From Podospora anserina (lineage: Eukaryota), in the NCBI GenBank assembly GCA_017654855.1, contig CM030332.1, positions 7,688,001-7,752,000 of the forward strand: a stretch of DNA of 64,000 bases. Direction: 5' to 3'. Numbering within the stretch: position 1 is the stretch's first letter; every line of letters begins with the position of its first letter. Both the position numbers and the translations under genes were made by a program. Below are positions 34,625-63,979 of the stretch, piece after piece. The notes under the pieces were generated by a model. That model was not told the origin of the DNA. It did not search any database and saw only the letters and a program-made list of their open reading frames with translations.

Positions 34625-37600
34625 TGTGGAAAGTTTGGTGCGTGCGCGCGTCTAACGGTTGCTGCGAAGCAGAGTTGATTCCCCCGCCCCAAGAGAACCT
34701 AATTCAAGCTGACGATGATTGAATGATCGAGGAACCAGTGTGTGTCGGAGTGGTGTTGGAGCGGAACTGCGGAAATGGGGATTCCGGGCGTCGCGGCAAG
34801 GCAGCAGAAAAAAAAACCAGAATAGGAGAATGAGAGAACGAGAGAGGGCCAGAGGGTGGGAGAAAGGCGGGCGGTCGTGGAAGAAATGGACAGTGGACAG
34901 GAAGGGTGGCAGTGGATGGAAGGCACCCGGCGCTTGGGGTTGGGTTGTCAGAGTGGGTCTCGCAGCGGTGATGGTGACTGGCGGCCTGTAACGGCAGTGG
35001 ATTTTCTCCAGCAAGTCCCCAAATGCGCCCCCGTCTCCTTGCCTCCGTTGGGCAGTTAGCTGGCTGCCAGACAAGGCTCAAACGGCAGCACCCAGTTGGC
35101 TGGAAAGACACCGGTCTGAACGGACACGCAGCGAGAATGGAGTCATCCAGCCAGCGAGATCCAGACGGTGTCAGGGGGACCGAGAGGCACGAGAGGGGGA
35201 CAAGCAGGGGAAGCCGGGGAATCCAGGCGTGCTGGTTGCTGGTGCGGTGGCAAAGCAGGCGCACGCAGCCAAAAAGAGAGGCCAAGAACACCTGCAGCGC
35301 TGTTCAATGCCATCCAATCGCAAGGCCCTCTCTCCGTCAGGAAGGAAGGGTTTGCACCGTCTATTGGGGAATCCCGTCGCCGTTCGAATGACGGGCGCCT
35401 GAGGTCGGATTGCTTTGCCGCTGCAGCTGAAAAAACCGGTACTGTCGGGATAAAACGGTGCTGGAGACTGACGTGACGGCATCGTGTTTGACTTGTCACC
35501 CCATCAGCATCCGTTCTGCCCAACATACATAACACATCACGCAGAATACATCGAAAAAATGAAAAGGTACCATGTTACCTTATCGTCGCCCTGTCCCAGC
35601 AAAGACCCCCTCCCCCCGAGGCCCAGCACAGCGCAGCAAATAACAGCCTGTCAGGTGAGCCGGTCGAGGCCAATCGCAGAGTGCGTGTTTTTGGGAGTGA
35701 CGATGTGTGGTCTCTGGTGGTCTCGCGGAGGCGTGGGAGTGTGTGGTTGGCTCCCGTCACCAGCACCTAGTGGGTTGCTGCGTTCGCAGATTTGCAGCCT
35801 GCAGCATGGCAGGAGACCAGGGCAGTTGTGCCATTGCATTTCCCATCCTCAGCACCCAGCAAGAGTGCGGCGGGTTGCGGTAACGGAGAGGGGTTTCTCC
35901 CTCAGAATCGGTGTCTGAAAGAGGACTCGGTTAGAGAGACGTTGTCTCCCACGCACCGAGCCCTGTTTGTATGGAGTCGACGTCTGCGTTGTTGACGGCG
36001 TCTCTTCCCGCGGCCGCCGCAGAAGCGGGGGCATTTCTGACCCGGCATTACACCCAGCCCTCTCGGGTGTTCTCTCTTCATCTCTTGTGTAAAAAAACAG
36101 AAAGAGGCTAGACCCGTGTAACATGGAGCTATGTGCTACGGAGACGAGGCTTCTTTTGGGCATGTAGCTGGCGTCAATCGGTGTTGCCCAAACGGTTCAG
36201 GCTGTTGTTGCAAAGCCTCTGATTGGGCCTCACCCACTGTCAAAAAACGCCAGATGAGCGAGAGGTGCGGGCTCCCATGCCAATCGCTTGGGTGACAGCC
36301 TGCAGTTGTCACGACAGTACTGGAAAGAGAACCGAAGAAAAGAAGCTGTTTCGGTTGCTGTCCCCGTTTCTCTCTGCCCATCTCTGACACTTCACGCGCA
36401 CAAGAAAAATGTGCAGGCTTGTTAGTCGGGAGCCCGAAGTGTGCCTGATCAGATACAAGTGGCGAACTGGATAAATTCCTCAGATCATACAGCAGTCTGA
36501 ACTCAAGTGTCTTCATGGTAAGTTGACGTCTGCCCATCTTCGTTGTCTCGGGCCGTGCGCTAGGCGGAAAGGGCGGGTGCAGCATCTATCGTCGAGAGAG
36601 GAGAAGGCTTGCTGCATGGAAATGTCTCATCTGCTCACAGAGGAGCATCTATCCCCATCTCCCCTCCCCCCACTGTCATGCATCCCGACGTTATCTGATG
36701 GGGATGAGGGTATACAGGTGCATGATGATGGATACCTCGGTGCGTGGTTGACAACCGTGGTCTTTGATGCCAATGTACAACTATCTCTTACCTACCCGGA
36801 CGGCTCCTCACCTGTCAAACATACGGACCGGTTGACAACGACGGGCATCATTGTTGCTTCGGTCTGGTGGAGTCAGGGCGAGCGAGGGCGTACGTAAAAT
36901 CCTGCATAGGTAGGTACGCAGCTGCCGTGTTCAAAATCAGCAGCGACAGTGACGACGGGGCGAGGTTTCTGGTTTGGTCAGGTCGGGTATCAATACATGA
37001 GCCCAAAGCCCAACCGTTGCCCGCATGAGAAAATATGGGGACTGATGGTCGGACCAGCCAATCACTGGCTCTCGCTCTTCCCCAAATGATGAAGCGGTGG
37101 TCGACGAAGCAACATTGCTTCGCTCATGCTGACTCTCGTGGGTTTTGGGGAATTCCCAGAACCTCAAACAAACAAGAAGCCTGTGTACAGCGACCGCAGC
37201 AAAGGCTCTGACGCTGTATGACGGATTGTGAAAAATCTCGAAATAGACTGTGATCCGCTGCGAGAGACATTGGTGAGCTTGTTTGTGGCTTCAAACTGCA
37301 CGGTGGCATCAGAGACGACAGCAGCTGGAAGAGATCCCACAGATCCCCTCAGGGGCCCATGCTCGTCGTCCGGGATGTGCTGTAGAGTTCCCAAACGGGT
37401 CGACTTCTCGGAGGATGAACGTGCATTTTCCAGCGACGTGACGATAAGGATTTCGTGTGGGATGGCCGGCAGAAGCAACTGCTCTCTGATATGGTTTGTG
37501 AGGATGGGGTTCACGGGTGTGCCCTCTTCTTCCATCCATCCGCGACGGCCCTCTTCCCGCTCCTTGCAAGAGGCGCTTGCATGCCGAGTGTTGGGTTCGG

Positions 37601-54977: not shown

Positions 54978-57552
54978 AGCCGGAGTCGACGCCTTCGCGC
55001 CCGCAGCCGGTTTCTTGGGGGTAGGCTTCGGACCAGCAGCCACGATGGTGGCCTTGCTGCTCGTGCTCTTGGCCGAGAGCTTGATCTTCGTCGTGGTCGT
55101 GGTCGTGGTCTTGACGCCTCTCTTCCCAAACGTCTTGGTCAGACCCACGCTCGTCACCTTTCGCTGAGTTGTCGTGGTCGTCTTCTTCACCCCGGCTCCC
55201 TTGGTGGACTTGAGCGCGCTCGCCCCGAGAGAGATTGTGCCCGAAACGCTCCTTTTGATAGCCGTAGAAGCCGACTTGGAAACGCCCCTGGCAAGACCTT
55301 TTCCTTTGGCAGCCGCGGTCTTTGCAGCGCCTTTGGCGGCGGCCGTGAGCGTTTTCTTCACCCCGGCCGCAGGTTGGACCTTGCGTTTCTTAGCAGCGTT
55401 CCCGCCGCTCGCCTCATCCTCGGCTCCGACCAAAAGCTCCTTGAGCTTCCGCTTGCCGGCCTTGATCGAGCCTCTGGCCGTCTTCTTCTCCTGCTTCGCC
55501 GGCTTTGGCGGCTTGACCTCCTTCGGCTTGGGACCCAGCACGCCTCTGCAGTTCGCGCTACCACACAGGCACTTCTGCACGTTCTTGGCGGAGAAGGGGT
55601 CAAAGTTGTAGTCGTACGTGAGCTCATCGCCCGTCATGATGGGCTTGTCGCCGGCAAAGAGAGCCATGCGGGGCTGGCCCGAGACGATCCATTTTATCAT
55701 CCGGCAGTTAGGTGAGCACGAGTGGTTCACGAACCGAGCCATGCTGCCAGTAGTAGCATCGATGATCATGTTTTGGTCGAACGACATGAGATAGTAGCAC
55801 TGCCGACCGAATCAGCTCCCGGGCCACGCAGCACGCACACCAGACCAGACGCGCAGGAGACTCACCTCGTTGTCCTTGTACTTTTCGTTCATCCGACGCT
55901 CGCACTCCTCCTCGGTGATGATCTCACCAGTGTACTCCATGATGATCTGGTTGGGCTCAAAGCACCTGGTGCTCCGGACGCCGTAGCCACGATCCGAGGT
56001 CTTGAGAACCTCGACACCTACGCGGAACCGGCCGCCCTTCTTGGTTCTCTCCTGGAGATCTTGGAAGGCACGGTTTTGACAGAATTCTCTGCCGGCGTTG
56101 CAGTTGGTGTCGTCACACTCGTAGAGCATGATGCGGTTCTGGCAATCCTCGGCGCAGCCATCTTCGGGCTTGCAGACGCATTTGGACGAGAAATCCTCGA
56201 AATGGGGCGACTTTTTCCAGTACGCCGCCGCATCGCCAACAAACCGATCTGCGAGCTTTGTTAGACGGTTTCACAGTACAGTCGAATGCGCAGGCAAGCT
56301 TACTCTTCGCGATGGTCCGGTACGCCGGTGGCTTTGGTTGCCCTGGAGGGAGGGGGTTGCACACATCAAAGGGCAGTTTGAAGTCGCGCCCGTGGATGAG
56401 CATGCGGAGGCCGTTGTACATGGGCAGAGGAAGCGTCTTGTTGGCCTTGACGGGCTTCAGAAGCTCTGGGATCTGAGCCAGCTGCTTCTTCTCCTGGGTT
56501 GTCAAGCCCTGGGTGATATCGGTGGGTGTTTCTTGTCCTGCGTACAGGCCCTTCCTGTGCCATTGCTTGACGCGACGCTGCTTGACGGGAGGCCGGACGG
56601 GCTCGGACGGCTCCGTGGTCGCGCGCTCCTTGCTCGTCTCGGTCTTGGGTTTCCCGTCCACCTTGGTCTTCTTGCGGGGTGGCTCAGCGGCAGGATCCAC
56701 GTCCACATACTTGCCATTGCTCCAGACCGTGTACTTGACCGGCCGGGTGTCAATATGAGCAAACTCGTTGGTATCCTGCAGGCGCATCAGCTCGCGCGAA
56801 ATGCGCCCCAAGCTCTGGGCCGACTTTCTGCCCTTTCTCCCCAATGCCGCCACCTTCGTGGCCAAAGTCTCCACAGGCGCACCGGACTGACGCGTAGCCC
56901 TTCGGGTGACAATCGGCGCCTGGACCGGGATCGGTTTCGTTTTCGAAGAGATTCTAGCACCTTTGGGGGTGCTGGTGCCCGAGACGGAGCCGCCGAGCGC
57001 CAGCACGTCAATGCCTGTCGACCTGTTTGCATCCGCCTCGCCACCGGCGTCCCCTGCAATAGTCCTGCGCCGGTTTTCTTGCACACCTTGCCCCGCGACG
57101 CGTCGCCTTCGCTTGTCGGTGCCACTCAACTGCGACAAATTGTAGACCGGTAAACTGGCACGGGCGCGTCGTGGGCGACCAGTGGACAGGGACTCGGTCG
57201 AAGGGAGCGGTTCGGCCACCACTATGGCCTGTCCCACCGGGCTCAGTTCGCCTGGCTGCTGTTGCTGCTGGTTATCGTCGGCGGCAGCTTCATTTTCGAG
57301 AATAGGAATGACAGCTTCGATCGTCGCGTCGGCCATGCTTGCCGGCTTGGTGGCGTCGGGTTCGGAAGCCAGAGACATGCTGTCCGGAGTACACGTGGTG
57401 GGCGGTGTCGAGCTCAGAGAAGCGGCATTGGAAGAATCGTCCGTCGGCGTGGCCGAGAAGCTGGACTCGGACATGATCACGCATCCGAGTCCAGCAGCAA
57501 TCGAAGATGTCGCTACATCGGTCGCTATGGTTGCAGCCATGTCTGTCGCCAT
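54735..57552 (-). CDS. ash1: ASH1-like histone H3K36 methyltransferase (AWS-SET-postSET), 3 exons: 57552-56304, 56248-55866, 55799-54735
   Basis: AWS cysteines (CVCKPEDGCAEDCQNR...CQNRAF), RGYGVR, EYTGE, GSMARFVNHSCSPNC, ELTYDYNF and post-SET CLCGSANCRG. Also RDFKLPFDV, an AT-hook-like GRPRR and a K/T/A-rich tail. Confidence 0.9.
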
Positions 57553-60015
57553 TGAGGGGGGTGCAACTCGCCAGAGAACGCGACAAAATGCTGGCGAGGA
57601 GGCAGCTGCAATGTTGCTGAAGTGGTGAGAAACTCCGGATGCAAGTTGCAAACGCGTCTGCAAGACGTGCCAATTGCACCAACGTAGGCGAGTCAGCGTC
57701 TCGGCGAGGCGGCCTGAGCTGAGAGGCCCACGCAACGAGGTCCCGTAGACGCGGCGTGGACGCAAGGTCCAATCCGAGCAATGCAGCCGAAAACAGAGGG
57801 CGACACACGCGAGGGGGGGTCCTTCAAAGACCTGTTCCCTCAGGGGGGGGGCAAAATCCTGGTTGCAGAAACTTGGGGTTCGTAGAGAGAGCCGAGCGCC
57901 AGGAAAAGGCCAGGCCAATTGCAAAAGTAAACGCGTCGAGAGTGTGAAGAAGCTGTATTCTAGAAAGAAAAGAAGAGAGGGTGCGCAAAAAGGCTTCAAA
58001 AAAAAAAACGAGGCATTCGACCGTCCAGGGGCAGGGGTGGTTTTGCGGAGAGAAGCGCGGTCGAGTGTTGTTGCGTTGTGGAGGAAGAGAAAGGGAAGAA
58101 GACGGTCTTGGATTGGTCGCCGGGGGGCGGGAACCAAAAGGTATTTAAGGGAGAGGCTGGAAGGGGGTCTGTTGAGTGGACTGTGTGTGGATGGACCACC
58201 ACCTCCGGCCGGCCTACCTCACCTCACGTACCTTACCCTAGGTTGACACCTTGTCTCCTTGCCCTATCCCTATCCGTCCCGGGACTACCGACCTTCCTTC
58301 TCACCGTACACCTTGTCTCTGAGATACCAGATAGATATCTGGCATCCGACATCTATCTGATTGCACATTCAAGCCATATTCTACGAACCTCCAGATGTAA
58401 GCACAAAGCAAAAGGTTGAAGGTCTGGACCGATCTCCTCAGCCCGTCATTATCTCGTGACATTCTCGGCGCCTGGTTGGGCCTGTACCGTCTGCTTGTTC
58501 CTCCTTGCTACGTACTTGGTCTAGCTTCCCGGGCTGTCTCCTGCAAACATCCCAGGTTCTGTCCTGGGCTTCGTCTTGGTACCACCCGAGACGGCGCATC
58601 GTGCGTCGTGGGAAAGCTAGCGTTGAGCCTATTCACATTCCAAGCCCCTCGAGACGTCCAGATGTCTGGTACGGGGGCCGGGGTGGACATATCGGTAGAC
58701 TATTTACTTTGTGTGAATGATCTCCTTTGTCAGAGGTCGAGGGGTGATCTGGAATGGCACGGAAATAAAAACAGATGGGTTGCGAGGCATATCAGTGCGG
58801 TGTGCTCAGACCTGGCCTTTTGCCTATCTTTCCCAGCTATAGAAATGGAAACGAGAAGTGGAATTGCTTTTTGCGGTTTCATCCCGTCAAGAGCTGAAAG
58901 AGATGTTTTTGGCCGTGTCGGCATCGGCATCCGAGAAGCTATCGTCCAGTGTGTGGGGGACATCAAGCCAACCGGCTGCACACTTGGATCTGTGACGAGG
59001 GGTTTGGGCGCCAGGACAGATGTCGATTCTTTGGGGACCACGACGTTCCAAGCCCAATGTGGCGGTTACTTCCATTCGACCGCACCTTGGATCGACAGAA
59101 GCAGAGACATCTTACTTCTACACACTTCGGATTTCCAGCCAATGTCAGTTCGGTAGCAGCACACTTTGGAGATGTATCACAAACTCAAACGGTAGACCTT
59201 GAGCCTCTCAAGTTTGTTTGCCAGATGATGGTGTTGCTATTTTGGACAGGTAGATATCACAATCACTGCCCCTCAGCAGCGCCACCAGCATTCCGTCAAG
59301 AAAGATCCATGCTAGCCCCCATGAGACAATGTATCTCCGAGATGGGATATCGACAGTTCGAGAGGCCGTCTCATTCACGGCAATCGACAGATCCAGGTAT
59401 CTTTTGACAGCTTTGCCATTTCGCCCGAGTGTCCAGTGGCGACCTGTTTTTCTGCCTCTTGGCTAGGTATGTTGCAATGCTGGCTGTCTAACCTTTGTGG
59501 CCCATTAGCAAGTGATCCTCGGGGGTCTGTCAACAGTAGTGAAAACACCTCACCGGTCTGGCGATGAGACGATTCAATTTCATCTGGCAGCGAATCTCAA
59601 AACGGGGTGGGTGAGACCCAGTGTCAAGGCATGTGCAGATAGTGTGGTATTCGCACCAGTGTGGACACCAAGGTCGGGGAAACTAACTAGCATCCATGTG
59701 TATCTTGCTCATACGAGAGGGTAGAACCGGCCTGGTTGGATAACAGAGTGCCTGCTTTCTTTCCGGTAGGAGCAGCAGTCACTCCTGACAATCGGGGAAC
59801 CGAACCTTCGAAAGCGGCATCTGGTGCTCCATTTAGCACTCCGATGACGATTTCCTCCTGTACTCATCATTAACCACACGCGAGAGCAGTCATTCGTTGA
59901 ACATTCCATAGGGCTTTATGTTAGCCGGCTGTTGTCTGTTGAGAACACTATCTCTTCTTCGATCCATCGTTTTCGACAGCCTTGAGAGACGGCCACCCCT
60001 CGTTTCTGGTACAGG

Positions 60016-62270
60016 ATGCATGGCGAAGATCTGGAAGGGGCCACGAGCCTCGATCCACAGATGTGAGACCCCTTTGCTGTCCCACGTCATGTTTTCGCGC
60101 CACTGACTTGACTTCGTCGCAGAATGCTGGACTCTTTTTCGTCGATACCAGCGCACGGAGAGGACAGCTGGGGCAGTACTTCAGCAACCAACCGAGACGA
60201 TACCCCAGATACTACTAGAGATGAACCGTCCAACAGACCCAATCCTTCTAGACACGCGCGGTTTCCCTACCCGAAAAATCAACCAGGTCCTCTCAGGAAA
60301 GCCGCAGACGGCACGTGGCACTCCGAAACGACTGTGTACACTCTCAAATGTCCAAGTAAATCCGATGCTGAGGGATAGACACCATCATCAACAGGCACAC
60401 CACCATCTTCACCGGATGCTTCCTTTTATTCAGAACGTCGTTCGCCATCATCAGTAGACCTGCTCTTTTGGACACAAGATCTCTCACTTTCTTCGAAAGG
60501 TTTGCTTCAAGGCAACAGTGATGCAGATTTCTTCATGGGAGAGCTTCGTGGTGGCGCGGGAGGGGGTGGTGGGCGCCGGAGAAGGACATGGGAGAAAGCG
60601 AAGAGCGGGGCCAGGTGGTTGAAGGCGTTTATGACCAGGCGACCTGCCCAAGGACTCCGAGCTGCTGCCGATCCAGAAGAAGATACAGATAGCAAAACGG
60701 CTGGAACAACTGGAGCGTCAGGAAAACTTGGAGCTACAGGAACAACTGTAGTGACAAGAGCTCTTGGAACGACGGCAACTCCTGGGACAGCCGGAAATAC
60801 AGGAACGACTGGCGAATCTAGAATTATTGTGAGAACTGAGATTACTGTGACAGGTGAAACAACTGGGACGACTGGGACCACTGGGACCACTGGGACTACT
60901 GGAAACAGCGAAGACCCTTTTCAACCGCGAAGGCGTTCACGTTCTCTGCCCAACATTGCTGTCAGCCGCTCGTCAAGTGGACCGCAAATATCAGGGGTAC
61001 CTCAGCGAAGCAGTCGACATCGAGCTTCTTCTAACCAACTGCCGTCTCATCCCATTGATACAAGCATTCGGGATTTCGCTGCCCAGGCTTATCCCAGTAC
61101 CAATCCCAGTACGACTGCAGAGACCTGGTGGCAACAAAACACGGCGCCGAGATACGGACCCGGTCGGCTTCGTGGTGGCGCCGGAGAGGGTGATGATGGG
61201 CGACGGAAGAAGGGATGGAAATCTTTCCAGAATTTCATAAAAGGCTCTTTGAAGAAGACACGGACGTCTAGAATAGGGGAACTTGAAACTACGGGAAGCC
61301 AGACAGGGGCCCCAAGACGACAAAGTACGCTCGCCGGAACGTCTACTGCAACAGGCAGTGCGCCTGTTGCAAAGCCGCCAACGTCCAGCGAGACTTACGA
61401 GATGACTACCTCTAGACAGCCCACCGGTACCGAGAGCCCCGTGACCCCCCCTCCAGCTACCCTCGCTCGTTTCAACGCAGGGCTGAGGGAGGAAGCACCC
61501 CCCACTGACTAGCGCAAGTGGGGGCTCAAAGCTGCTGCCGCCCGGGAGGCCGGCAAGCGTGAGATTCGTCGAACTGCGGCTGGTCATCCCGATGCCATCA
61601 GTAGAGCACCGCCAGTGAAGGGTTCTGAACCCGCGGTGAATACTGTCGGAGAACCATGGCCAAAGTATGACCAGAACCTCTGTAAGACTGGCGACAACAA
61701 CCCCCCAGGAACGCGTAACAAGCCTCAAGTAATCCAGCCACTGCCCCAAGTCAAGGAAAAGATACCTATTACCGGCACTGGATTTGATTACTACCCCAGC
61801 ACTACGTTTACGGAGCGGTACCGAAGCCGGCCGATCGAGACGTACGACGACTATGCGGGACCGCCTGTTGAGAAGAAGGATCAGGGGGAGGAGAAGGAGG
61901 TTGTTGTTCCAGGTGATAGCGAGGCGGGAGGATCGAGACGACCTCCGCCGGCTCCTAGGCATGGGCTTGCTCAGCCGGTTCGTCGAGGGCAGCGGGCTCC
62001 TCCCATGCCATCTATTGCCAGTGTTTTGGCTGAGGCCGGGCCGCCTGGGCTTCCGCCACTGGTAAGCAGTCTCTAGGGTGCGGTGAAGGGAAGGATTGTG
62101 CTGACAGGGGACTTTTTGAATAGTTGGTCTCGAGTAAGGATGAGGGTTACGAGGGGGATGACGAGAAGGGCACATCTCTAACAAGCGTCGAGACATCTGG
62201 ACAGCGGGACACTGGAAAGAGAATTGAAGATAGGATTATGGGATACTCAGCGGAATTATTTGGTTTGTAG
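60016..62270 (+). CDS. ~710-aa orphan low-complexity protein with two in-frame TAG codons (60376-60378, 61510-61512); exons 60016-60062, 60123-62061, 62124-62270
   Basis: Track ORFs 60124-60378, 60502-61512 and 61615-62076 share one frame, and the gaps between them contain no stop other than the two TAGs. Canonical introns GTGAGA...CTGAC...CGCAG and GTAAGC...GCTGAC...AATAG join in phase to flanking exons. Confidence 0.7.
60862..60903 (+). repeat. Coding 9-bp minisatellite (ACTGGGACN) encoding Thr-Gly-Thr repeats
   Basis: ACTGGGACG ACTGGGACC ACTGGGACC ACTGGGACT ACTGGA. Confidence 0.85.
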
Positions 62271-63595
62271 TCATAGACTTTTTGATATGACTGGGTAGAA
62301 TGGATTAGCGAAGAATGATAACTAATTGTGAGGAGGTGTTGAATACCGTTTGGGTTGTGCTGAAAATTCTTTAGAATGTGGTTAGATGTCTCAAAGGTTG
62401 GTGGGGAAGTTTTGAAGAGCAAGTGCGTTGCTTATTGTCACGAATATGATGTGGACACCCGCAAAGAACAACCAATAGGGAAGAGGAGGCACGGCGGCCA
62501 ATCAAGAGAAAGGAGGATGGACCAGTAAGAGGTGGATCATCCGGGACATGAAGGAATCATGAGCGATTCCCAGGAATCACTCATGATCCTTAGGAGTCGG
62601 TCATGATCCGGGGAGAAACAGAATGATCCAGGCTTGGCATTAGGTCTATATATACGGAGGAACTAGATAGCTTGCAGATAGTTCCGCAGTATGCAATTCA
62701 CAGTTGAATTCACGGCATCTTGTGTTTACATCGAGACATCTTGTTGTGCACTGTTTAGCTGCACCGAACCAATTGTCAGAAGTTACCTTCAACCCGTATC
62801 CCTTTCAGAGGTTCTGTACAGGGGTTCGTCACAATAGTACTACGGTGCTCAACACTATTTCAACTCCTTATTTAATGCCCTTATAATATTAGCTTGGCTC
62901 CTGTTTGTATTGTCAGGTCACCTTGTTCCTTATACTGTGACGTGCCTGAGGTAAGCAAGCTCCAAGTTGGCGGCCATCATCTATCTGCTGACCAGCCAGC
63001 TCGTTTCACAACAAGTGAGTAATCCAAGCTAAAAAAAAATAAAAAAATCAGTCTGAAGCCTTCTCGACCTCTCTGGCACCCGCCGGTACATGTTTTCCCA
63101 GTCAACCCAACGACTGCTGCCTCAATCACCAAAAATGCTCTTTCAACGCCCCCTCTGCCCTCCCCCTCCCCAAGATGTCGTCAAAAACAGACCCCAAGCT
63201 TTGACCACGCACATCTTCAAACTCCAATCCCTGCCCCGTGCGCGCCCTGCAGCTTCACTAGCCACAAGCGGGAAGCCCCACCTGCCACCCCTGCCACCCC
63301 TGCCACGACCCAAAAAGAACCGCCGGGGTTAGGCAGGGAGGAAAAGGCTCCACTTTTAACGACCTTTTTGACTCTTTTTGGAATTTGGGGGTTGGGGTTG
63401 TTGACTGTTGACTGCTTTGCCATCCACAACCAGAGAGCTTGGAGCTTCCAGCCCCACCAACCAGTACTTGACCATCCCACCTGTCTCGAAACCCACCACG
63501 ACCTTGACGAACATAACCCACCCCACGATCCCCGATCAAGTTCCCCTCCCTCTCATCGAAGACGAAAACAAAGAAACAGAAAACAGATCCCAATC

Positions 63596-63979
63596 ATGAG
63601 CGAAAGACCCTACCAGCCCCGAGGCGGTCACAGAGGAGGAAGCGGAGGAGGCAGGGGAGGTCCTCATCGCGGCGGCGGCGGCGGCAATCGGGGCGGCGGT
63701 CGCGGGGGTCACCAGAACCAGCAGGGACAACAACACCAAGGCGGGTCCGGGGAGCAGACGGAGCGTCCCAAGAAGGAGAATATTCTTGACCTGAAGAAGT
63801 ACATGGACAAGAGGATTACGGTCAAGTTTAATGGCGGACGGGAGGGTAGGTTGTTCTCAAACTTGGGGAAATGGTTAAGCAGATGCTGACATGGAGGAAT
63901 GAACAAGTGACGGGTACGCTAAAGGGGTATGATGCGTTGATGAATTTGGTGCTGGATGAGGTTCAGGAGGCGGTCAGAG
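63596..63979 (+). CDS. LSM7: U6 snRNA-associated Sm-like protein LSm7, partial (exons 63596-63845, 63908-63979; continues beyond the window)
   Basis: RPKKENILDLKKYMDKRITVKFNGGRE|VTGTLKGYDALMNLVLDEV after splicing; RGG-rich N-terminal extension. Confidence 0.93.

Follow-up and report, generated by a model that had tools for sequence, protein, structure and literature searches.

The 64-kb stretch of Podospora anserina DNA analysed here (64,000 nucleotides, contig CM030332.1 of assembly GCA_017654855.1, positions 7,688,001 to 7,752,000; hereafter called the window) carries a spliced plus-strand gene, the product of which contains the tetrapeptide LRGG twice. LRGG is the C-terminus of ubiquitin, and the first-pass annotation had considered the two motifs as possible cleavage sites for deubiquitinases (DUBs), in a polyprotein whose production would be controlled by editing of two in-frame UAG codons. 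As judged from the comparison with orthologues, LRGG is the invariant tetrapeptide at the start of a conserved module some 45 residues long, which was duplicated before the genera Podospora, Triangularia and Apiosordaria split. This module appears to be lineage-restricted and undescribed.

The gene starts with the ATG at 60016, which has an in-frame TGA 11 codons upstream, and extends over 710 codons to a terminal TAG. Besides two internal TAG codons (TAG1 and TAG2), the spliced reading is free of stops and frameshifts. Contigs of four public runs from four studies (X1, X3, X6 and X10) were aligned to positions 59400-62600. That these runs are RNA is a guess in the index, their contigs lose minor variants, and the samples come with no record of developmental stage; the spliced joints found in the contigs show that the runs contain transcript sequence. 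Table 1 lists the exons together with the other features of the gene.

Table 1. Features of the LRGG gene, in positions of the window.
Feature	Position	Strand	Basis or remark
Exon 1	60016..60062	+	15 codons and 2 nt; the proteins P0002 and P0006 match at their N-termini
Intron 1	60063..60122	+	60 nt, GT..AG; joint 60062>60123 in X1 and X6 contigs
Exon 2	60123..62061	+	1939 nt, contains both internal TAGs and both modules; orthologues align over the whole exon
TAG1	60376..60378	+	codon 101 of the spliced reading
Module 1	60508..60645	+	Q-G, variable stretch, G-x-LRGG, Gly-rich hinge, RRRR, Trp-led basic helix, TRRP
Predicted helix 1	60571..60636	+	P0001 residues 150-171; AlphaFold, block pLDDT 71-73
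Thr/Gly-rich tract 1	60685..60909	+	composition; three runs of 4-5 G-x-y triplets
Module 2	61132..61275	+	QQ, variable stretch, conserved LRGG/hinge segment, Trp-led basic helix
Predicted helix 2	61192..61275	+	P0001 residues 357-384; AlphaFold, block pLDDT 58-84
Thr/Gly/Ser-rich tract 2	61276..61458	+	composition
Predicted hairpin	61499..61524	+	8 bp, 10-nt loop; A of TAG2 in the loop
TAG2	61510..61512	+	codon 479 of the spliced reading
Intron 2	62062..62123	+	62 nt, GT..AG; joint in X3 and X10 contigs
Exon 3, coding part	62124..62270	+	stop TAG 62268-62270, then TCA TAG

The spliced C-terminus is independently present as a Logan-derived protein (P0008, 197 residues, 2 contigs). A version retaining intron 2 also occurs among the Logan-derived proteins (P0012, 153 residues, 15 contigs); intron 2 may often be retained, which would alter the C-terminus. 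Breaks or thin contig cover around 60470-60620 were seen in all four runs, and nothing is concluded from them. On the opposite strand, an open reading frame (ORF) of 401 residues at 60991-62196 was rejected as a gene, having no Pfam family and facing two splice joints which both read GT..AG on the plus strand.

Two copies of the LRGG module

Both LRGG motifs lie in the frame-1 translation of the plus strand, at 60544-60555 and 61168-61179 as originally annotated, and are specified by the same four codons (CTT CGT GGT GGC). They belong to a 29-nt direct repeat (60543-60571 and 61167-61195, 26 of 29 positions or 90% identical), which encodes the 15-mer that had been noticed at both sites, and the copies of which are 624 nt, that is exactly 208 codons, apart. 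A degenerate DNA pattern for L-R-G-G-A-G has two matches in the window, both at the LRGG sites; 0.05 matches are expected from shuffles and not one of 100 shuffles had two or more. When two 100-residue stretches were compared with each other by BLASTP, 38 residues around LRGG were aligned, 15 of them identical (E 3e-5).

A tract rich in Thr, Gly and Ser indeed follows each module, with a combined fraction of these amino acids of 0.64 over 75 residues behind module 1 and of 0.46 over 61 residues behind module 2, as opposed to 0.26 elsewhere in the protein. Tract 1 includes a 9-nt tandem repeat (ACTGGGACC, 4.6 copies) at 60862-60902. The Thr-rich G-x-y runs are collagen-like and consist of 4-5 triplets in the window gene and of 8 in Triangularia setosa. 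Assignment to the collagen repeat family (PF01391) was rejected, as the runs are too short and reach 15.3 bits against a Pfam gathering cutoff of 27.2, and so was a reading as an RGG box, there being just 2-3 RGG per protein. In a literature search for "LRGGAG", most matches concern collagen or collagen peptides according to their titles, and the remainder, in the portions retrieved, have no link to fungi or ubiquitin. A tblastn match of the module at 35162-35275 of the window (E 1.0 and 3.3) belongs to the unrelated sequence of another gene and is regarded as noise.

A word-based protein search with the read-through protein resulted in 2 matches among 8000 scored candidates, a protein search with the middle ORF also in 2, and a profile search of 1.84 billion representatives in 6, of which 5 are this gene or pieces of it. 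Full-length orthologues were found in Triangularia setosa (P0002, 596 residues), T. verruculosa (P0004, 671 residues) and Apiosordaria backusii (P0003, 938 residues), and these genus-level orthologues share 30-45% overall identity with the window protein. From the Podospora anserina complex there are pieces which are 89-97% identical to the window gene: P0006 (100 residues) and P0011 (489 residues) from P. pseudopauciseta, P0010 (245 residues) from P. bellae-mahoneyi, and further pieces among the Logan proteins. In the large protein collections searched, orthologues were seen solely in the genera Podospora, Triangularia and Apiosordaria. No Pfam family scores above its cutoff in P0001 (the window protein in a version of 650 residues), P0002 or P0003. 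The profile match P0007 (E 1.1e-4) was rejected because its similarity is confined to the Thr/Gly tract, the rest of the protein being unrelated. A word search with the module only (P0001 residues 336-385, against proteins of 357-1138 residues) gave 12 candidates, none of them at E up to 10, and the ESM Atlas returned no usable match for a 66-residue stretch of module 1.

The order of elements within the module is Q-Q/G, 5-12 variable residues, G-x-LRGG, a Gly/acidic hinge, x-W with about 14 further residues in which Lys lines one face and the other is hydrophobic, K-A-F-V-T-R-x-P, and finally the Thr/Gly-rich spacer. LRGG is kept in 8 of 8 module copies of the four genus-level orthologues, each of which has exactly two such sites in the same two places, and it is present in both copies of P0011 as well, so that all 10 copies examined, from 5 species, have it. 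The residue before LRGG varies (E, R, G or V), and the residue after the GG is Ala in 9 of the 10 copies. Invariant columns make up 25 of the 67 aligned module columns, compared with 32 of 247 outside the modules (Fisher p 1.6e-5). It is the downstream side of the GG that is conserved, and not the upstream side; in copy 2 an invariant stretch, R-LRGGA-EGDDG-RK-W, reaches well beyond the GG. Conservation in orthologues had been proposed as a check in the first-pass annotation, with loss of the motif amid conserved flanking sequence as the outcome that would speak against a role of LRGG. The opposite was found: LRGG is invariant while its flanks vary.

Across the four genus-level orthologues, each of the two copies resembles its counterpart at the same place, and the duplication therefore predates the genera. 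The internal module duplication reported earlier is thus both real and old, and every orthologue has both copies.

Predicted structure and ancestry of the protein

AlphaFold2 was run on a four-sequence alignment of P0001 and gave a mean predicted local distance difference test (pLDDT) value of 41.7, with 552 of 650 residues below 50. Beyond a small hairpin (residues 57-67), only three helices are predicted (150-171, 357-384 and 463-477). The first two of these are exactly the basic segments that directly follow the two hinges. Both LRGGs are in low-confidence coil, as are the 70 residues that precede each of them; more widely, residues 71-147 and 172-352, on the N-terminal side of the two motifs, are predicted as coil with pLDDT below 50. 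No Pfam ubiquitin family matches at E up to 1 either, which agrees with the first-pass observation that no ubiquitin fold is evident.

The best 18-mer of helix 1 has a hydrophobic moment of 0.56 (4th of 633 in the protein) and a net charge of +5, and that of helix 2 has 0.58 (2nd of 633) and +6. In 7 of 8 module copies, the 18-mer after the hinge ranks between 1st and 8th in its own protein by hydrophobic moment and carries a net charge of +5 to +8, the exception being copy 1 of A. backusii. Hydrophobic residues occupy positions i, i+3, i+7, i+10 and i+13/14 in most copies, a spacing that we take to fit calmodulin-type or coiled-coil binding as well. The basic amphipathic segment that had been postulated after each LRGG is thus borne out by the hydrophobic moments and by the predicted helices.

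Copy 1 of A. backusii diverges after LRGGAGEE into a W/D/H/N repeat. This repeat looks like the Thr/Gly tract in another frame, and the cause is possibly an error of the gene model or a real frameshift.

The third helix (61513-61560) begins exactly at the TAG2 codon, is basic and contains a Trp; in the model it looks like a degenerate third basic helix. A 19-nt repeat joins 60652-60670 with 61522-61540.

The A. backusii orthologue P0003 has about 470 extra N-terminal residues. Within these, residues 108-399 gave a structure match in the ESM Atlas to an SFH5 cluster with a template modelling (TM) score of 0.72, and CRAL-TRIO accounts for every one of the ten best feature hits; a phmmer search of P0003 against PDB found SFH5 at E 0.23. 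Pfam fails to detect CRAL-TRIO in P0003, and residues 108-399 look like a highly diverged CRAL-TRIO/Sec14-like domain. Exon 1 of the window gene aligns to P0003 residues from about 234 to 250, in the middle of this domain, where the T. setosa protein also aligns with its start, so that the window gene appears to keep a 16-residue CRAL-TRIO relic. In a tblastn search of the window with P0003, nothing of residues 1-587 was found at E below 1, and the CRAL-TRIO domain is absent apart from the exon 1 relic. From these two observations we conclude that, of a former Sec14-like protein, Podospora and Triangularia retain the tail but not the lipid-binding domain. The gene model of A. backusii could conceivably be a fusion, and the exon 1 relic argues against this.

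In-frame TAG codons and flanking genes

Both LRGG sites are located between TAG1 and TAG2, as had been stated, and on either side of these stops the frame is open and can be aligned to orthologues. As the modules are encoded behind a TAG that is retained in the mRNA, they can be made only if this stop is bypassed. In P. pseudopauciseta the gene is represented by two adjacent gene models: P0006 ends exactly at TAG1, and P0011 starts at an ATG three codons before the first LRGG. P0011 removes 24 codons ending in TAG2 by a modelled intron, and P0010 of P. bellae-mahoneyi removes 26. Going by these gene models, both stops seem to be common to at least three species.

An intron that removes TAG2 (61441-61512, or extending to 61518) was rejected as the main form, since X1, X3 and X6 contigs run straight through and a branch-like CTGAC is found just 3 nt ahead of the AG of this modelled intron; a minor isoform is conceivable. 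For TAG1, escape by an intron was rejected as well: the lone GT..AG candidate that ends there is, at 23 nt, too short, and the contigs show no joint.

The first-pass annotation had assumed that the UAGs are edited. Editing was not seen in contigs, which hide minor variants and stem from samples of unknown stage: TAG1 is spanned without a differing letter by contigs of all four runs, and TAG2 is spanned unchanged in the three runs that cover it (X1, X3 and X6). Among the 7 contig differences listed over the aligned region there is no A>G.

Fungal editing is described as preferring a U at position -1 and hairpin loops, and as correcting UAG codons in some 70 Fusarium genes, according to the part of PMC11156358 consulted. 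The U at -1 holds for both TAGs by definition. The A of TAG2 is in the loop of a hairpin (Table 1), the 61-nt stretch around TAG2 as a whole being no more stable than shuffles (z -0.13), and at TAG1 no stable local RNA structure was found. For Podospora, the literature searched, which did not extend to supplementary lists of edited genes, has no report of RNA editing that corrects premature stops; in the accessible part of PMC13433876, Podospora is merely named as a taxon for future comparison. It is quite possible that expression of the gene depends on editing, most plausibly a sexual-stage adenosine-to-inosine (A-to-I) conversion of UAG to UGG. Points against editing are also a third-position G+C that is not raised and the fact that both strain polymorphisms in the frame alter the protein.

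At the other end of the gene, the terminal TAG is followed by TCA TAG, then by three sense codons and a TGA. It occupies the first positions of the tetraloop that closes a 7-bp hairpin (62239-62299; z -2.3, with 5 of 200 shuffles folding as well), and at the terminal TAG and the following TAG of the window, the relative P0005 reads Q and W. Stop-loss editing at the C-terminus is possible, and so is recent turnover of the stop.

The fastest-evolving part of the gene is formed by the 100 codons before TAG1 (60016-60375), which is the part translated for certain. Five of the 11 amino-acid changes that distinguish it from P. pseudopauciseta are such as G-to-A changes would give.

The neighbouring gene on the minus strand (55812-58137) matches AWS and SET (SET at E 6.3e-5), with the domains near 55812-56129, and probably codes for a histone lysine methyltransferase. 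Its long ORF ahead of the domain has no Pfam family. An ORF at 63368-63889, the other neighbour, has no assigned family. The contig depth of X1 rises about ten-fold after 62400, and loose contig ends are found at 62436/62438. In the stretch 62436-62600, a different transcript with higher expression probably has its start or its end.

Possible functions of the modules and related systems

The modules may be duplicated binding elements, for a membrane or for a partner protein, which are not cleaved and which reside in a disordered tail left from a Sec14-like protein. We give this reading about an even chance. The cationic amphipathic helix of about 20 residues, anchored by its Trp, would provide the contact to an acidic membrane surface or to the partner. 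The invariant LRGG and the Gly/acidic hinge would serve as helix cap or as intramolecular counter-charge, a basic cluster (RRK) being placed between hinge and helix and the Thr/Gly-rich tract acting as spacer behind the helix. Because of the Sec14-like ancestry, the membrane is favoured over a partner protein. On this reading, the disordered tail of a lipid-transfer protein has outlived its folded domain.

Several points weigh against a function as binding elements. The reading is drawn from sequence physics alone, the module having no homology to a characterised binding motif, and the four-sequence alignment used for AlphaFold makes the missing fold weak evidence. Copy 2 of the window gene lacks the KAFVTR-x-P helix end that is common to the other copies, and the strict invariance of LRGG exceeds what a helix N-cap appears to need, so that a specific recognition event, for example by a protease, is possible. 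The gene may no longer be functional in the species complex: the two in-frame stops are carried unedited in mRNA-like contigs, the third-position G+C of the middle part (0.43) is no higher than that of its flanks, and the divergence from P. pseudopauciseta is distributed as 11 changes in the 100 amino acids before TAG1 and, in the parts behind the stops, as 11 in 302 and 4 in 183.

These last observations would be explained if the gene in the species complex were a transcribed remnant, which lost its CRAL-TRIO domain and then acquired two nonsense mutations, with the modules as relics and only the first 100 codons still translated. Such decay is unlikely in our estimate, though it has to be taken seriously. 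It would agree with the splitting or patching of the gene by the annotators of two sister species, with the strain polymorphisms seen in the frame, both of which alter the protein (60647 Ala to Val, 61152 Arg to Ser), with the lack of a third-position G+C excess, and with the 26 amino acids in 585 codons that differ from P. pseudopauciseta. However, these same 585 codons contain no frameshift or further stop, and neither do the partial sequences P0010, P0005 and P0013, in which the lone indel is in frame and comprises 6 codons. Decay also leaves unexplained that TAG, the only stop open to correction by UAG-to-UGG editing, is found at both internal positions, that TAG2 is in a hairpin loop of the kind preferred by fungal editing according to the consulted part of PMC11156358, and that the stops are apparently common to at least three species. 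In addition, the TAG behind the gene end is TGG in a relative, a pattern of edited sites. What remains beside editing and decay is a short product, reinitiation or read-through.

Cleavage at or beside LRGG is rather improbable. It could be exerted after the GG by a DUB-like protease, or at LR/GG or RRK by an Arg- or dibasic-specific protease, and the pieces so released would carry the acidic hinge and then the cationic helix at their N-termini. Such processing would account for the invariance of LRGG next to a variable preceding residue; the Ala at position P1' in nearly all copies is compatible with a cut after the GG, and the spacer behind each module is as in a polyprotein. L-x-G-G followed by Ala is also the form of the sites cut by the papain-like protease (PLpro) of coronaviruses. 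Against this, ubiquitin-like termini are recognised on their non-prime side, and it is precisely this upstream side that is not conserved in the modules, the conserved residues being on the prime side. No Pfam ubiquitin family was matched, and the 70 residues in front of each site are predicted as coil. Nor was a protease domain found by Pfam and ESM Atlas in the family members searched, where CRAL-TRIO is the sole folded domain. Processing of dibasic sites in the Golgi is unlikely because the N-terminus, as read from the sequence, does not resemble a signal peptide. LRGG tetrapeptides are cleaved very poorly by DUBs, which need the body of ubiquitin as an exosite, as stated in the part of PMC7477763 consulted, and the DUB-type cleavage suggested in the first-pass annotation is in our view very unlikely on the evidence of the sequence. 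If LRGG were cut nevertheless, a cellular protein would use the ubiquitin terminus independently of ubiquitin, which would be surprising.

A still more speculative combination would be a system with two keys, in which both UAGs are edited from A to I in the sexual stage, a protease independent of the ubiquitin fold then cuts at LRGG, and the pieces act on membranes in ascus or ascospore development; we consider this a long shot. Least probable of all is that the LRGG repeat has been selected or homogenised at the nucleotide level, as an RNA or DNA element or by a short gene-conversion tract: of the 7 codons in L-R-G-G-A-G-x-G that stand for the same residue in both window copies, 6 are identical, which is unexpected for a duplication older than the genera (chance about 1-2 in 1000, estimated by hand from the codon usage of the gene) and could reflect a short gene-conversion tract or an RNA-level constraint, but the motif is kept as amino acids in four other species at 30-45% overall identity and the peptide-level module stretches far beyond the 29 nt.

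Four known systems invite comparison with the modules and the TAG pair. Ubiquitin and ubiquitin-like precursors, such as polyubiquitin and the fusions of ubiquitin with ribosomal proteins, likewise have LRGG followed by a small residue, more than once per polypeptide. In contrast to them, the window protein has no beta-grasp fold before the motif, its upstream region is disordered and variable, and its conserved residues come after the GG. The PLpro sites of coronaviruses share L-x-G-G with a following Ala, outside a ubiquitin context and in a multi-module polypeptide, but the members of the present family encode no protease domain in cis, and the gene is a cellular fungal gene with introns.

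Membrane-binding tails of a polybasic or amphipathic type are known from plant Sec14-nodulin proteins, with their polybasic region at the C-terminus, and from the effector domain of MARCKS. The features in common with these tails are a cationic amphipathic segment with aromatic anchors, its position in a disordered region, and an ancestral Sec14-like domain. There is no sequence homology to them, and the LRGG/acidic hinge has no counterpart there.

The TAG pair is a more promising lead than LRGG cleavage, and with this pair in an otherwise intact frame the locus is a candidate test case for editing that corrects premature stops in Podospora. The nearest parallel is provided by the genes of Fusarium graminearum in which premature stops are corrected (PUK1 and about 70 others, as far as covered by the consulted part of PMC11156358). 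The window gene differs from them in that its contigs have no A-to-G change and TAG1 has no supporting structure. It resembles them in having in-frame TAGs in an open frame that matches orthologues, in having one of these TAGs in a hairpin loop, and in apparently sharing its stops with sister species.

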